A program made the position numbers and the translations under genes. The notes below the pieces were generated by a model. The model worked only from the letters and a program-made list of their open reading frames with translations, was not told the DNA's origin and searched no databases. A DNA stretch of 64,000 nt, from assembly GCF_003790525.1 (NCBI RefSeq), contig NZ_CP033635.1. The stretch is one strand, 5' to 3'. Origin of the DNA: Escherichia coli. Its GTDB lineage: Bacteria; Pseudomonadota; Gammaproteobacteria; Enterobacterales; Enterobacteriaceae. Each line of letters opens with the position of its first letter. Within the stretch, counting starts at the first letter, position 1. Of the stretch, positions 1,695-6,668 are shown piece after piece.

Positions 1695-2657
1695 TTATTG
1701 CACGAAGCGCGAGGTCACGTACTGGCTGTAATCATTCGCCACGGCAGGGACTTTACCCTGATCTTTCAAAAACTGCGCGGTATCGATGATCGCTTTATTC
1801 ACCGGTCCGGTCAGTTCTGCCGTTTGTTGCTGCGGCGTCAGATAGGTATTCCCCTTCACCAGCCCCGGAACGTCACCTTCAGGCACGCCGCTTAACCGCG
1901 CCAGTTTGCTGATGTTTTCCGGCTGTTTCAGCCACGCGTCTGGGTTAGCAATGTACGGTTGCTGAGCATCGATGGCGCTTTTAGCGAACGCTTTCACGAC
2001 CTCAGGATGTTTCTCGGCAAAATCTTTGCGCACTACCCAGACATCCAGCGTCGGCGCACCCCACTGCCCGACCTGTTCAGAATCGGTCAGCACCTTGCCG
2101 TCTTTTTCCAGGGCGTTAACCGCCGGTGCCCAGACATAAGCACCATCAATGTCTCCCCGCTGCCATGCAGCGATAATCGCGGGCGGCTGCAGGTTCACAA
2201 TCTCCACTTGCCCGGGTTTAATACCCCAGTGTTTCAGCGCCGCCAGCAGGCTGTAGTGGGTGGTGGAGATAAACGGTACGGCGATGCGCTTGCCAATCAG
2301 ATCTTCCGGTTTGCTGATAGTTTTCTTTACCACCAGCGCTTCGGAGTTACCCAGTTTTGACGCCAGCAAGAAGACTTCAATCGGCACCTGTTGGCTGGTT
2401 GCAACCGCTAACGGGCTGGAACCGAGGTTGCCGATTTGCACGTCGCCTGAAGCCAGCGCCCGCACGATGCTGGCTCCGCTGTCAAACTTACGCCAGTCCA
2501 CGGTTGCTCCGCTTTCTTTAGCAAAGGTGTTGTCGGCCTGAGCCACTTTCGCCGGTTCGGCGGAGGTTTGATACGCCACGGTGACGTTCACCGCCTGCGC
2601 CTGAAAAGCGATGAATGCCAGTGCGGCAAGAAGTGTGTTACGCGATGAAATTGCCAT
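1695..2657 (-). CDS. tauA: taurine ABC transporter periplasmic binding protein
   Basis: ORF 1695-2714; likely start at internal ATG giving signal peptide [22 protein letters not shown] and 320 aa. Confidence 0.85.
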
Positions 2658-3272
2658 GATTGTCTGCTCCCCTGTCTTGTTATGGGAGCAGTATTCAGGA
2701 ATAAAAACATTCATTAAAAGAATTAGTCGTTATCGCACAGATGATTTTATTCTTAGCAAAAAAACGGCAAAGGAAAGATTAAATATGCAATTACTCCGTT
2801 CTAACAATTGGGAAAATTACTACACTTCATTTTAGTGATGCATAAACAACCACATTACGAGATTTATTACTTCATTATTTCTATCAATATCAATACATAT
2901 AATAAAACTATTATATTCGCATTGTATATATCACTGTATCATTCTCAATCACTCGCATATTACATTCACATAATGTATATAAACAATACTTGTTCACAGA
3001 ACATATTTTTTAAATGCAATTAATTGACAAACTAAATCACATCTAAATACAATGTATAAAACAAAATAACTATACATACCAAACATACAAACACTTAACA
3101 TATGAATTGCATAAAAACATTACCCAGTCGAACCTCCGGGTCTGAAAGCCCTTGCTTTTCAGTTATTAGCAACATTTAACATTTATAAATTAACATCTGG
3201 CTGCGCCAGAGATTACGTCTCTGAGTGCATCGTTGTGCTTGTAGTATAATAAATAAAATGGAGTGTCATTAA

Positions 3273-3944
3273 GTGGATAAGGTTTTAGATTCAGCCCTCC
3301 TTTCTTCGGCAAATAAAAGAAAGGGTATCCTTGCTATTGGCGCACATCCTGACGATATAGAATTAGGCTGTGGCGCATCGCTTGCTCGTCTTGCGCAAAA
3401 AGGAATTTATATCGCAGCCGTGGTGATGACTACCGGCAACTCTGGCACAGATGGAATAATCGATCGCCATGAAGAATCGCGCAACGCCCTAAAGATATTA
3501 GGGTGCCACCAAACTATTCATCTTAATTTTGCTGACACCCGCGCTCATTTACAGCTCAATGATATGATTTCCGCCCTGGAAGACATCATTAAAAATCAAA
3601 TTCCTTCTGATGTTGAAATCATGCGGGTATATACCATGCATGATGCTGACCGCCATCAGGATCATCTTGCAGTCTATCAAGCCTCAATGGTTGCCTGCCG
3701 AACTATTCCACAAATTCTCGGCTACGAAACCCCAAGTACCTGGCTTTCATTTATGCCTCAGGTTTTTGAATCCGTTAAAGAAGAATATTTCACAGTCAAA
3801 CTTGCTGCATTAAAAAAACATAAAAGCCAGGAACGACGCGATTATATGCGTCATGATCGCCTGCGTGCAGTTGCACAATTTCGCGGGCAACAGGTCAATA
3901 GCGATCTGGGTGAAGGCTTTGTAATTCATAAAATGATTCTTTGA
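3273..3944 (+). CDS. yaiS: LmbE/PIG-L family putative N-acetylglucosaminyl deacetylase
   Basis: GAHPDDIELG motif near N-terminus and HDADRHQDH metal-site-like motif; GGAG 9 nt upstream of GTG at 3273; start uncertain. Confidence 0.7.
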   Translation: MDKVLDSALLSSANKRKGILAIGAHPDDIELGCGASLARLAQKGIYIAAVVMTTGNSGTDGIIDRHEESRNALKILGCHQTIHLNFADTRAHLQLNDMISALEDIIKNQIPSDVEIMRVYTMHDADRHQDHLAVYQASMVACRTIPQILGYETPSTWLSFMPQVFESVKEEYFTVKLAALKKHKSQERRDYMRHDRLRAVAQFRGQQVNSDLGEGFVIHKMIL

Positions 3945-3953
3945 GCAAATTGC

Positions 3954-5150
3954 ATGAAAACCTGGATATTTATCTGTATGGCCGTAGCAATATTGCTATG
4001 GTTCCTGAGTACGTTAAGGCGTAAGCCCAGCCAAAAAAAAGGCTGTATTGACGCCATTATACCTGCTTATAACGAAGGCCCGTGTCTGGCGCAGTCACTG
4101 GATAATCTGCTGCGTAACCCTTATTTTTGCCGGGTAATTTGCGTTAACGACGGCTCCACGGACAATACCGAAGCGGTCATGGCGGAAGTCAAACGCAAAT
4201 GGGGCGACCGCTTTATTGCCGTCACGCAAAAAAATACCGGTAAAGGTGGTGCGCTGATGAATGGCCTCAATTACGCCACCTGCGACCAGGTTTTTTTAAG
4301 TGATGCCGACACCTATGTTCCGCCCGATCAAGACGGAATGGGCTATATGCTGGCAGAAATAGAGCGCGGTGCTGATGCCGTAGGCGGCATTCCCTCTACT
4401 GCGTTGAAAGGCGCGGGTCTGTTACCGCACATCCGCGCGACCGTAAAGTTGCCGATGATTGTTATGAAGCGCACGCTACAGCAGCTCCTGGGCGGCGCAC
4501 CGTTTATTATCAGCGGTGCCTGCGGGATGTTCCGTACTGATGTATTGCGTAAGTTCGGTTTCTCTGATCGTACTAAAGTCGAAGACCTTGATCTCACCTG
4601 GACATTGGTGGCAAACGGCTATCGTATTCGGCAGGCGAATCGCTGCATCGTATACCCACAGGAATGCAACAGCCCGCGTGAGGAATGGCGTCGCTGGCGG
4701 CGTTGGATTGTGGGCTACGCGGTCTGTATGCGCCTGCATAAAAGACTTTTATTTAGCCGCTTCGGTATCTTCAGTATATTTCCTATGCTGTTGGTTGTGC
4801 TTTATGGCGTTGGGATTTATCTCACTACCTGGTTTAATGAATTCATCACCACCGGGCCGCATAGTGTGGTGTTGGCAATGTTTCCGCTTATCTGGGTCGG
4901 CGTAGTTTGTGTTATTGGTGCTTTTAGCGCCTGGTTTCATCGTTGCTGGTTGTTGGTGCCTTTAGCGCCGCTTTCCGTTGTGTATGTATTATTAGCTTAT
5001 GCCATCTGGATTATTTATGGACTTATTGCCTTTTTTACTGGACGCGAACCTCAGCGCGACAAACCCACCCGCTATTCCGCACTGGTGGAAGCGTCAACCG
5101 CTTATTCCCAACCTTCTGTCACAGGAACTGAAAAACTTTCTGAAGCTTAA
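3954..5150 (+). CDS. yaiP: membrane-embedded family-2 glycosyltransferase (synthase-like)
   Basis: 398 aa; N-terminal TM helix, IPAYNE, NDGSTD, SDADT (DxD), EDLD, REEWRRW (QxxRW-like) motifs, then C-terminal TM helices. Confidence 0.8.
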   Translation: MKTWIFICMAVAILLWFLSTLRRKPSQKKGCIDAIIPAYNEGPCLAQSLDNLLRNPYFCRVICVNDGSTDNTEAVMAEVKRKWGDRFIAVTQKNTGKGGALMNGLNYATCDQVFLSDADTYVPPDQDGMGYMLAEIERGADAVGGIPSTALKGAGLLPHIRATVKLPMIVMKRTLQQLLGGAPFIISGACGMFRTDVLRKFGFSDRTKVEDLDLTWTLVANGYRIRQANRCIVYPQECNSPREEWRRWRRWIVGYAVCMRLHKRLLFSRFGIFSIFPMLLVVLYGVGIYLTTWFNEFITTGPHSVVLAMFPLIWVGVVCVIGAFSAWFHRCWLLVPLAPLSVVYVLLAYAIWIIYGLIAFFTGREPQRDKPTRYSALVEASTAYSQPSVTGTEKLSEA

Positions 5151-5709
5151 TGTTAAAGAGAAAAATATTCAGATTGCAGACCAGGTAATTATTGATGAAA
5201 CTGCAGGTGAAGTTGTTATCGGCGCGAATACCCATATTTGTCACGGTGCCGTTATTCAGGGTCCGGTAGTGATTGGCGCAAACTGCCTGATAGGTAATTA
5301 TGCGTTTATTCGTCCTGGCACAATAATCAGCAATGGCGTAAAAATTGGTTTCGCCACCGAAATTAAAAATGCGGTTATTGAAGCGGAAGCAACGATTGGT
5401 CCGCAATGTTTTATTGCCGACTCGGTAGTCGCAAACCAGGCATATTTGGGCGCACAAGTACGTACCAGTAATCATCGTCTGGATGAACAGCCCGTGTCTG
5501 TTCGAACTCCAGAGGGAATTATCGCTACCGGATGCGATAAATTAGGTTGTTATATCGGACAGCGTTCACGCCTTGGCGTACAAGTTATTATTTTGCCTGG
5601 GCGAATTATTTCCCCGAACACGCAACTTGGCCCGCGCGTGATTGTAGAACGTAATTTACCTACCGGAACTTATTCACTCCGACAAGAACTTATCCGTACA
5701 GGAGATTAA
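4999..5709 (+). CDS. yaiX: hexapeptide-repeat (left-handed beta-helix) acyltransferase; true start uncertain
   Basis: Maximal ORF overlaps yaiP by 150 nt; repeated [LIV]G-x4 hexapeptides (VIGANTHI, VIGANCLI, ISNGVKIG); first canonical start after the yaiP stop is GTG at 5269. Confidence 0.55.
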   Translation: MPSGLFMDLLPFLLDANLSATNPPAIPHWWKRQPLIPNLLSQELKNFLKLNVKEKNIQIADQVIIDETAGEVVIGANTHICHGAVIQGPVVIGANCLIGNYAFIRPGTIISNGVKIGFATEIKNAVIEAEATIGPQCFIADSVVANQAYLGAQVRTSNHRLDEQPVSVRTPEGIIATGCDKLGCYIGQRSRLGVQVIILPGRIISPNTQLGPRVIVERNLPTGTYSLRQELIRTGD

Positions 5710-5710
5710 A

Positions 5711-6484
5711 ATGATAAAACGGACGTTATTAGCGGCGGCCATTTTTAGCACATTGCCCGCTTATGCCGGGTTAACTTCCATTACCGCGGGCTACGATTTT
5801 ACCGATTATTCTGGCGATCATGGCAATCGTAATTTAGCGTATGCTGAACTGGTGGCGAAAGTTGAAAACGCAACGCTGCTTTTTAATCTTTCCCAGGGGC
5901 GTCGTGATTATGAAACTGAACATTTCAATGCCACTCGCGGTCAGGGTGCGGTCTGGTATAAATGGAATAACTGGCTGACAACCCGAACGGGTATTGCCTT
6001 TGCGGATAATACGCCGGTCTTTGCCCGCCAGGATTTTCGTCAGGATATTAACCTGGCACTGTTGCCAAAAACGCTTTTCACGACCGGTTATCGCTACACT
6101 AAATATTACGATGATGTCGAAGTCGATGCCTGGCAAGGCGGCGTATCCCTCTATACTGGCCCGGTGATCTCCAGCTACCGCTATACCCATTATGACTCCA
6201 GCGATGCAGGTGGTAGTTACAGCAATATGATTTCCGTGCGTCTGAATGACCCGCGCGGCACTGGTTATACGCAACTATGGCTAAGCCGCGGAACAGGCGC
6301 TTACACCTATGACTGGACGCCAGAAACACGCTACGGCAGCATGAAGAGCGTCAGTCTGCAACGTATTCAACCGCTGACTGAGCAACTTAATCTCGGGCTG
6401 ACGGCAGGTAAAGTGTGGTACGACACCCCAACCGATGATTATAACGGTCTGCAACTTGCAGCCCATCTGACCTGGAAATTCTGA
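5711..6484 (+). CDS. yaiO: outer-membrane beta-barrel protein
   Basis: Signal peptide MIKRTLLAAAIFSTLPAYA, alternating aromatic-rich strands, C-terminal TWKF; starts 2 nt after yaiX stop. Confidence 0.8.
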   Translation: MIKRTLLAAAIFSTLPAYAGLTSITAGYDFTDYSGDHGNRNLAYAELVAKVENATLLFNLSQGRRDYETEHFNATRGQGAVWYKWNNWLTTRTGIAFADNTPVFARQDFRQDINLALLPKTLFTTGYRYTKYYDDVEVDAWQGGVSLYTGPVISSYRYTHYDSSDAGGSYSNMISVRLNDPRGTGYTQLWLSRGTGAYTYDWTPETRYGSMKSVSLQRIQPLTEQLNLGLTAGKVWYDTPTDDYNGLQLAAHLTWKF

Positions 6485-6644: not shown

Positions 6645-6668
6645 TGCGTGCAGATGATGAGGTGCGAA

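Follow-up and report, generated by a model that had tools for sequence, protein, structure and literature searches.

The window analyzed here is a 64,000-nucleotide stretch of Escherichia coli DNA (contig NZ_CP033635.1), and our subject is the group of four genes at its positions 3273 to 6484, yaiS, yaiP, yaiX and yaiO. The strongest new result is that these genes constitute one co-inherited, self-contained functional module. They encode, in this order, a zinc N-deacetylase of the PIG-L/LmbE type (carbohydrate esterase family 14, CE14), a family-2 glycosyltransferase (GT2) of the inner membrane, a left-handed beta-helix (LbH) protein and an outer-membrane beta-barrel. With regard to function, we see about an even chance that the cassette is a horizontally mobile, self-contained unit that makes and exports a surface glycan derived from N-acetylglucosamine (GlcNAc), the N-substituent of which is remodelled in the cytoplasm. 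An earlier note on this DNA had likened the four genes to the Pga/Ica systems; the analogy held for the module and for the PgaC-class synthase, but not for the site of tailoring, the O-acylation or the type of secretin.

The module was revealed by its recurrence across genera. YaiP homologues with 62-69% identity from Acinetobacter, Stenotrophomonas and a third genome were found within the same PIG-L/GT2/LbH/YaiO order, and the neighbours of these cassettes (rpoBC, TonB receptors and MFS transporters) were unrelated. The Citrobacter cassette displayed the identical four-gene order, as did cassettes from Salmonella and soil metagenomes. Since the same four genes occur in the same order in unrelated genomic contexts, their arrangement is well past chance. 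Metagenome contigs were also probed with a back-translated DNA pattern of the YaiP family, RWIxGYx[VI]CM, which yielded 80 loci, 74 with a YaiP-family gene; these 74 fell into 18 clusters at 80% identity, with GC contents of 0.49 to 0.68. When the counts were restricted to loci whose contig had room for the gene in question, the partners were near-universal (yaiS 57/58, yaiX 63/63 and yaiO 52/53) and the order was always S-P-X-O, consistent with the earlier proposal of one functional unit. No fifth structural gene was recurrent among the metagenome cassette loci. All four genes evolve under purifying selection, with ratios of nonsynonymous to synonymous substitution rates (dN/dS) of 0.06-0.22 in comparisons with Citrobacter and with a second, diverged copy from E. 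coli.

The narrow YaiP family comprised 46 clusters (50% identity) at E<1e-30 among 1.84 billion representatives, beyond which generic GT2s followed. At 38-41% identity, the PIG-L/GT2/LbH trio was still together. In a low-GC version of the cassette (L009 5242-9561, and L010), the trio was followed by a membrane-anchored CE4 polysaccharide deacetylase instead of YaiO; since a 377-aa YaiP member with 39% identity is recorded from the Firmicute Anaerosolibacter, the bacteria that carry this version probably lack an outer membrane. In locus L012 the order differed, with yaiO upstream of yaiS and the trio, yet the genes were still linked. A scan of genome contigs with the YaiP alignment returned true members at 2 of 80 loci, the automatically chosen peptide patterns being generic GT2 motifs, and one candidate member, P0209 (L011), was dropped as an aberrant sequence that the translation of its locus does not give.

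Several features were observed around these distant cassettes. The low-GC version had a secreted GH16 protein encoded upstream and divergently transcribed, and the L012 YaiP homologue (1790-3493; 567 aa, 54% identity) was extended at its C-terminus by a domain of about 190 aa that matched nothing in Pfam. Recurrent neighbours of the high-GC cassettes from soil and rhizosphere metagenomes (L102, L134, L158, L127, L118, L145 and L152; GC 0.61-0.65) were regulators: FixL-like PAS histidine kinases directly upstream, FixJ-like response regulators, sCache/HAMP hybrid kinases and divergently transcribed MarR-like genes. This suggests that the cassette is under dedicated signal-dependent control outside E. 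coli.

In the window, the four genes are tightly packed, as the earlier note had described. The listing of open reading frames (ORFs) and direct reading confirmed that yaiS and yaiP are separated by 9 nt (GCAAATTGC), that the yaiX frame runs over the 3' end of yaiP and terminates at 5709, and that 1 nt then precedes yaiO. The gene identities given there (a PIG-L protein with an AHPDD motif, a membrane GT2, a hexapeptide-repeat protein and a signal-bearing barrel with an aromatic end) likewise agreed with the family matches and the sequence. The region is 100% identical to positions 403565-407665, minus strand, of NC_010498.1 (E. coli SMS-3-5), where all four frames are open.

YaiP (3954-5150, plus strand; 398 aa) matched the Pfam GT2 families PF00535, PF13641 and PF13632. 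Asp-66, Asp-117-Ala-Asp-119, Glu-210-Asp-211 and Arg-250-Trp-251 were invariant in 43 homologues, so that the D, DxD, ED and RW motifs expected of a processive synthase are present, but the RW that the earlier note had placed within REEWRRW (247-248) is not the conserved pair. The conserved pair is the second one, in R247-W-R-R-W251, which aligns with QRLRW of PgaC, just as VEDLDLTW of YaiP aligns with TEDIDISW. The best NCBIfam match was PgaC_IcaA (TIGR03937) at 100.7 bits, below the equivalog cut-off of 422.3, while the NodC model (TIGR04242) gave 29.5 bits against a cut-off of 550. A direct comparison with E. coli PgaC showed 28% identity over 241 aa (E 3e-19), with an hhalign probability of 99.5, and the aligned stretch takes in all of the motifs.

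The predicted topology of YaiP added an N-terminal transmembrane helix (residues 1-23) to the C-terminal helices that had been noticed before, which are three hydrophobic ones. An AlphaFold2 model built from the 43-sequence alignment (predicted local distance difference test [pLDDT] 87; predicted TM-score [pTM] 0.85) was laid out as a transmembrane helix, a GT-A domain, an interface helix with RWRRW and three more transmembrane helices. Against the PDB, the full-length model was most similar to hyaluronan synthases (HAS; query TM-score [TMq] 0.62-0.67), followed by PcManGT and BcsA (0.58). When PDB chains were searched with a profile of the YaiP family, neither HAS nor BcsA was detected, and just the N-terminal nucleotide-binding half matched, to generic GT2s, so that the HAS/BcsA link is one of fold only. 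GtrB, ArnC and DPMS matched just the soluble GT domain of the model (TMq 0.36-0.38), and YaiP was accordingly rejected as an undecaprenyl-phosphate glycosyltransferase of the Gtr/Arn type. AFDB neighbours of YaiP were mostly unnamed PgaC-like proteins, with some NodB-domain fusions. Together, these comparisons by profile and fold, which the earlier note had proposed with PgaC and BcsA among the references, support the notion that YaiP is a membrane-integrated GT2 of the PgaC/HAS/BcsA class. A conserved charged tail, TG-x-EP-x-RDKPTRY (residues 363-375; 5040-5078), followed the last transmembrane helix throughout the family, and E. coli and its relatives extend YaiP beyond this tail by a variable 20-25 aa.

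YaiS (3273-3944, plus strand; 223 aa, intact) matched Pfam PIG-L (PF02585, 6e-25) and carries the metal motifs AHPDD, at residues 24-28, and HQDH, the latter conserved across orthologues as DRHQDH. Its best NCBIfam match was BshB1, at 80 bits under a cut-off of 182.5, and MshB reached 19.8 against 224. The nearest solved structures were archaeal diacetylchitobiose deacetylases (8bgn/3wl4, E ~3e-12), and a Bacillus LmbE-related protein was also among the nearest relatives. Proteins of these kinds (BshB1, the diacetylchitobiose deacetylases and LmbE-related proteins) deacetylate GlcNAc-O-R compounds in the cytoplasm, and the diacetylchitobiose deacetylases act on the non-reducing GlcNAc of chitobiose. 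RefSeq/PGAP calls the SMS-3-5 yaiS a partial pseudogene ('missing C-terminus', ending at 3683; L013 2174-2584), and the match in other genomes that carry the intact allele is annotated as no more than a 'hypothetical protein'. Since the frame is open over 223 aa and can be aligned along its entire length with the orthologues and the solved Dac structures, the pseudogene label is probably an annotation artefact.

YaiX (5017-5709, plus strand, with an uncertain start) belonged to the Hexapep/LbH families and matched NCBIfam Arch_glmU at 130 bits; its nearest structure was ST0452 (5z09/2ggo, E 8e-23). Its relatives are the C-terminal domains of glucosamine-1-phosphate (GlcN-1-P) and galactosamine-1-phosphate (GalN-1-P) N-acetyltransferases of the archaeal GlmU type, not O-acetyltransferases. 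YaiX could be aligned without gaps to ST0452 and E. coli GlmU, and this showed that Arg-105, Glu-121, Lys-123, Asn-158 and Lys-181, all invariant in 10 sequences, correspond to Arg-333, Glu-349, Lys-351, Asn-386 and Lys-392 of GlmU, the residues holding GlcN-1-P. Other GlmU positions were substituted in YaiX (Tyr-366 by Phe or Tyr, Asn-377 by Tyr or Phe, and Ser-405 by Val or Ile). Neither YaiS nor YaiX displayed a signal sequence or a hydrophobic or transmembrane segment, in E. coli or in the orthologues. Since both lack export signals, YaiS and YaiX are predicted to act in the cytoplasm.

YaiO (5711-6484, plus strand; 257 aa) matched TIGR04390 at 183.9 bits (cut-off 32) and PF19413 at 1.5e-25. 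Its N-terminus resembles a signal peptide (MIKRTLLAAAIFSTLPAYA/G) and its C-terminus reads ...LTWKF. The structural model showed 14 strands with short loops and no plug (pLDDT 89.9), in agreement with the earlier assignment as an outer-membrane barrel. No solved chain similar in sequence was found, and the top fold matches were CymA, an oligosaccharide channel, and FadL/TodX, channels for hydrophobic solutes. The relatives that we found were all stand-alone proteins of about 260 aa; single-sequence and profile searches returned no fusion of YaiO with a tetratricopeptide repeat (TPR) domain, an absence of evidence only, these searches being word-index-limited. Lumen-facing residues deduced by crude strand alternation included conserved Arg, Gln, Tyr and Trp, an indication too weak to use. 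A curated review counts YaiO as a K-12 outer-membrane protein with no solved structure (PMC7383365).

On one side of the cassette, tauA occupies 1695-2714 (minus strand); on the other, frmR-frmA-frmB begins at 6648 (plus strand). Composition and direct reading delimited an AT-rich, ORF-poor leader of 558 bp between tauA and yaiS (2715-3272, plus strand), with a GC content of 27-32%, whereas the flanks reach 55-58% and the four genes 41-56%. The leader contains a near-consensus sigma-70-like site at 3024-3053 (TTGACA-18-TACAAT, 11/12 positions), and the GTG start codon of yaiS has a GGAG lying 9 nt before it. The yaiS/tauA intergenic region of K-12 counts among 78 'promoter islands'; it was bound by H-NS in every ChIP study compared and is linked to genes predicted to be foreign or horizontally acquired (PMC3661553). 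The H-NS-bound, AT-rich K-12 leader supports the idea of silencing, which the earlier note had drawn from an AT-rich leader of about 600 bp.

An Rfam search of the yaiS leader gave no match at E<=1, and leaders from six genera showed no alignable conservation; the idea of a riboswitch or other conserved RNA leader ahead of yaiS was therefore rejected. ORF-free stretches of 350-1100 nt precede yaiS in most genera (for example, L008 1-1133, L015 4927-5964 and L005 6568-7332), and the L008 region, where composition was measured, was AT-rich (GC 0.34). A small antisense ORF overlaps the 3' end of yaiS (3810-3929, minus strand); it is annotated as a 'hypothetical protein' here and as YkiC in K-12, and YkiC (39 aa) appears in a small-ORF annotation table (PMC6001520). 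A separate antisense RNA within yaiP served as a reporter control (PMC4666370).

In the mechanism that we propose, the cytoplasmic GT-A site of YaiP would take a UDP-amino-sugar as its substrate, and the growing chain would be threaded through the membrane helices of YaiP itself. YaiS and YaiX would act in the cytoplasm before or at polymerization: YaiS would strip the N-acetyl group from a GlcNAc-1-O-R species, and YaiX would re-substitute the free amine or merely bind it. In synthase-dependent systems such as BcsA and HAS, the chain is translocated during synthesis, so that cytoplasmic enzymes would reach only a precursor or the cytoplasmic chain end. UDP-GlcNAc or GlcNAc-1-phosphate would be the most likely substrate and the chain end a less likely one; given the sugar-phosphate pocket of YaiX, an activated precursor would be the most economical choice. 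The exported product would then carry glucosamine (GlcN) or a non-acetyl N-acyl group, and YaiO would supply outer-membrane passage, as its fold and genetic linkage suggest. In E. coli, the cassette would normally be silent behind the H-NS-bound leader. A cytoplasmic scheme in which the acetyl group is removed and the amine re-substituted appears to fit better than a post-polymerization scheme, and the CE4 enzyme of the low-GC variant together with the PgaC/HAS affinities of YaiP would favour a chain over a lipid.

Several observations weigh against this reading. The general base of GlmU, His-363 (His-308 in ST0452), is replaced by an invariant Pro-135 in the YaiX family, and no His is invariant in the 10 sequences. 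YaiX may therefore not be an acyltransferase at all but a binding subunit. Beta-helix N-acetyltransferases without such a base exist, namely QdtC and WlbB, and both were among the matches to YaiX; catalysis by YaiX is thus possible by analogy.

The start of yaiX is also ambiguous in E. coli, where it may be the ATG at 4999 or 5017 or a non-canonical codon near 5128. In other genera (Acinetobacter and Stenotrophomonas), yaiX starts with ATG-TGG-TGG ('MWW') and overlaps yaiP by 14 nt, whereas E. coli has His-Trp-Trp (CAC), and Citrobacter Pro-Trp-Trp, in place of this ancestral start. The E. coli frame has no ATG, GTG or TTG from 5026 to about 5200, and the PGAP start is the CTG at 5128. With the 'MWW' start lost and no canonical codon in that interval, translation would have to begin either at the remaining canonical starts, which sit 134-152 nt within yaiP, or non-canonically.

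Other adverse points concern the remaining components. Action on nucleotide sugars is not known for PIG-L enzymes. The fold cannot prove processivity of YaiP, which is modelled with only four transmembrane helices and shares its fold with putative glycolipid synthases; AFDB neighbours labelled beta-monoglucosyl-diacylglycerol synthase reached a TMq of 0.72-0.77. The best fold matches of YaiO come from channels for oligosaccharides and hydrophobic solutes, not from polysaccharide secretins, and no periplasmic TPR scaffold is encoded in the cassette; a CymA/FadL-like barrel without such a scaffold keeps oligomeric and lipid products alive. In the literature we found no functional study of yaiP, yaiS, yaiX or yaiO dealing with product, phenotype, mechanism or expression, yaiO figuring mainly as a PCR marker for E. 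coli.

A product resembling a Nod factor is the most probable of the alternatives, though an unlikely one. YaiP would make short chito-oligomers and release them in the cytoplasm as NodC does, YaiS would deacetylate the non-reducing GlcNAc in the manner of NodB, YaiX would N-acylate the freed amine in the manner of NodA, and the acylated oligosaccharide would exit through YaiO. The kinship of YaiS with diacetylchitobiose deacetylases, the predicted cytoplasmic location of both YaiS and YaiX, and the resemblance of YaiO to oligosaccharide and hydrophobic-solute channels are all consistent with such a product, as is the layout of one plus three hydrophobic helices in YaiP, which has also been reported for NodC. 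Conversely, the NodC model matched YaiP far less well than PgaC/IcaA did (29.5 versus 100.7 bits), an inner-membrane exporter like NodIJ is missing from the cassette, and the extracellular CE4 enzyme of the low-GC version is typical of polymer tailoring. Moreover, the pocket residues conserved in YaiX bind the phosphate of GlcN-1-P in GlmU, and a chito-oligomer end has no phosphate to offer.

That YaiP instead attaches a single GlcNAc residue, or a few, to a membrane lipid appears quite improbable. YaiS would de-N-acetylate this lipid, as happens in the glycosylphosphatidylinositol (GPI; PIG-L) and hopanoid (HpnI/HpnK) pathways, and YaiX would N-acylate it; YaiO would then assist in displaying the resulting N-acyl-glucosaminyl lipid. 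PIG-L members typically use small GlcNAc conjugates, the AFDB labels of the YaiP neighbours and the FadL/TodX-like barrel would suit a lipid product, and Pfam Glyco_transf_21, of the ceramide-glucosyltransferase type, matched YaiP at 31.9 bits. This was the weakest significant GT2-type Pfam match, however, and no HpnI-type family was among the NCBIfam matches of YaiP. The PDB fold ranking prefers polymer synthases, the CE4 polysaccharide deacetylase of the low-GC variant argues for a glycan chain, and a lipid acceptor would leave the sugar-phosphate pocket of YaiX unexplained.

The order of events in the earlier note, in which YaiP makes a polymer like poly-N-acetylglucosamine (PNAG) that is partially de-N-acetylated by YaiS, O-acylated by YaiX and exported, is in our judgment very unlikely. 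In its favour, the best curated match of YaiP is PgaC/IcaA, and the four functional categories are the same. Polymerization followed by de-N-acetylation does not accord with the absence of signal peptides and membrane segments from YaiS and YaiX: since synthase-dependent polymers leave during synthesis, the two proteins would be unable to reach the translocated chain. O-acylation is at odds with the nearest relatives of YaiX, the amino-sugar-1-phosphate N-acetyltransferases, and with its lack of the catalytic His, and Pga-type export finds no counterpart in YaiO, which is not a TPR-porin of the PgaA/BcsC/PelB kind.

The state of the locus within E. coli bears on whether the cassette has any present function. 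At least 80% of the region was retained in 4250 of 5426 complete E. coli genomes, while some strains showed a clean absence in which only the tauA and frmR flanks matched, O157:H7 records matched only at the frmR end, and others carried IS1 or IS2 insertions. Many truncated clusters were on record (YaiP of 294-358 aa and YaiO of 147-236 aa). In the K-12 lineage, IS2 lies in yaiX and a nonsense codon replaces Gln-186 of yaiS (3828-3830; L014 1729-1731), leaving 185 aa, so the K-12 copy is doubly dead. In searches with exact 61-mers, the intact yaiS allele was found in 2212 records and the nonsense allele in 355. In a Keio screen, the yaiS knockout was among the mutants sensitive at the critical high temperature (PMC5828445); since yaiS is truncated in K-12, this phenotype carries little weight. 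Some E. coli carry a second, diverged whole cassette of about 89% nucleotide identity (CUVET17-1136, L015 5965-9171), located in an island with IbrB-like/PAPS-reductase genes, a TonB-dependent receptor and IS66/ISL3 remnants. This copy is a mosaic relative to that of the window, with synonymous divergence (dS) of 2.2 in yaiS and 0.1-0.24 in yaiP, yaiX and yaiO. That the E. coli cluster is an inert, decaying xenogeneic remnant, as the H-NS-bound leader, the K-12 lesions, the insertions, deletions and truncations in other strains and the lost canonical yaiX start might suggest, is hardly credible in view of its wide retention, the predominance of the intact yaiS allele and the low dN/dS of all four genes, including that against the second copy.

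The genes themselves were already annotated and YaiO was accepted as an outer-membrane protein; what is new is a synthase architecture with an unprecedented accessory set, in which a putatively cytoplasmic CE14 deacetylase is combined with a GlmU-derived beta-helix protein devoid of the catalytic His and with a TPR-less 14-stranded barrel. Carrying the proposal of a cytoplasmically remodelled surface glycan further, we tentatively suggest, as a possibility short of probable, a class of glycan or oligosaccharide new to Enterobacteria: a beta-linked glucosamine chain on which the CE14 deacetylase and the beta-helix protein would, in the cytoplasm, exchange the N-acetyl groups for a different substituent or leave the amines free, and which would cross the envelope by a minimal two-protein route, the four-helix synthase and the barrel, with no periplasmic scaffold. 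This suggestion includes an acylated chito-oligosaccharide signal of the Nod-factor kind from E. coli, Acinetobacter and Stenotrophomonas. The known exopolysaccharides of E. coli are cellulose, PNAG, colanic acid, enterobacterial common antigen (ECA) and capsules. If the proposal is true, the cassette would add another synthase-type system to these, and its being intact in most natural isolates but broken in K-12 would explain the lack of study. Among the synthase-dependent trans-envelope routes proposed so far it would be the smallest, and it would be the first pairing of a PgaC-like synthase with cytoplasmic editing of the N-substituent. Should the product affect biofilm formation, phage adsorption, immune recognition or signalling, its reach would be clinical, as Acinetobacter, Stenotrophomonas, Salmonella and Citrobacter share the cassette. 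The K-12 alleles (yaiS Q186stop and yaiX::IS2) are unsuitable for functional tests.

Compared with PgaABCD and IcaADBC, the cassette shares an inner-membrane GT2 synthase with the D, DxD, (T)ED...SW and Q/RxxRW motifs, a dedicated outer-membrane barrel, and an operon that also encodes a deacetylase and an acyl-modifying component. It differs in that the YaiP score falls below the PgaC_IcaA cut-off and no PgaD/IcaD partner is encoded. The tailoring enzymes of Pga and Ica are CE4 or membrane enzymes that work outside the cytoplasm. YaiS, in contrast to the extracytoplasmic CE4 enzymes PgaB and IcaB, is a predicted cytoplasmic CE14/PIG-L protein, and among YaiP-related loci CE4 occurred only in the distant low-GC variant (L009). 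Similarly, IcaC is a membrane O-succinyl/acetyltransferase, whereas YaiX is a putatively cytoplasmic beta-helix protein of the N-acetyltransferase type, and PgaA is a 16-stranded TPR-porin, whereas YaiO has 14 strands and no TPR domain. Class I HAS and BcsA, which gave the best full-length fold matches, resemble YaiP in having a GT-A domain, an interface helix with an xxRW motif and subsequent transmembrane helices; they have six to eight such helices as compared with four in YaiP, which also lacks PilZ.

The NodC-NodB-NodA system has the same order of chemistry, in which a GT2 makes a GlcNAc chain that undergoes cytoplasmic de-N-acetylation and re-N-acylation, as well as a synthase comparable to YaiP with its one plus three helices. 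Its enzymes belong to other families, however, NodB being a CE4 enzyme and NodA having its own fold, and the cassette has an outer-membrane barrel but neither a NodIJ-type exporter nor a CE4 or NodA-like gene. Pairs that deacetylate and then N-acylate are known elsewhere (LpxC/LpxD, NodB/NodA, HpnI/HpnK, teicoplanin Orf2*/Orf11* and MshB/MshD); the Hpn, teicoplanin and Msh pathways employ a PIG-L-type deacetylase, and LpxD is the beta-helix acyltransferase among them. In LpxC/LpxD, HpnI/HpnK, the teicoplanin pair and MshB/MshD, as proposed for YaiS and YaiX, a metallo-deacetylase frees the amine of a GlcNAc unit that has been installed or is at hand, and an acyltransferase re-substitutes it, but none of these pairs is tied to a PgaC-like synthase and an outer-membrane barrel. 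Finally, YaiO has a barrel of the 14-stranded CymA/OmpG/FadL type, and whereas those channels serve uptake, YaiO lacks an N-terminal plug or hatch and is genetically tied to a biosynthetic operon.

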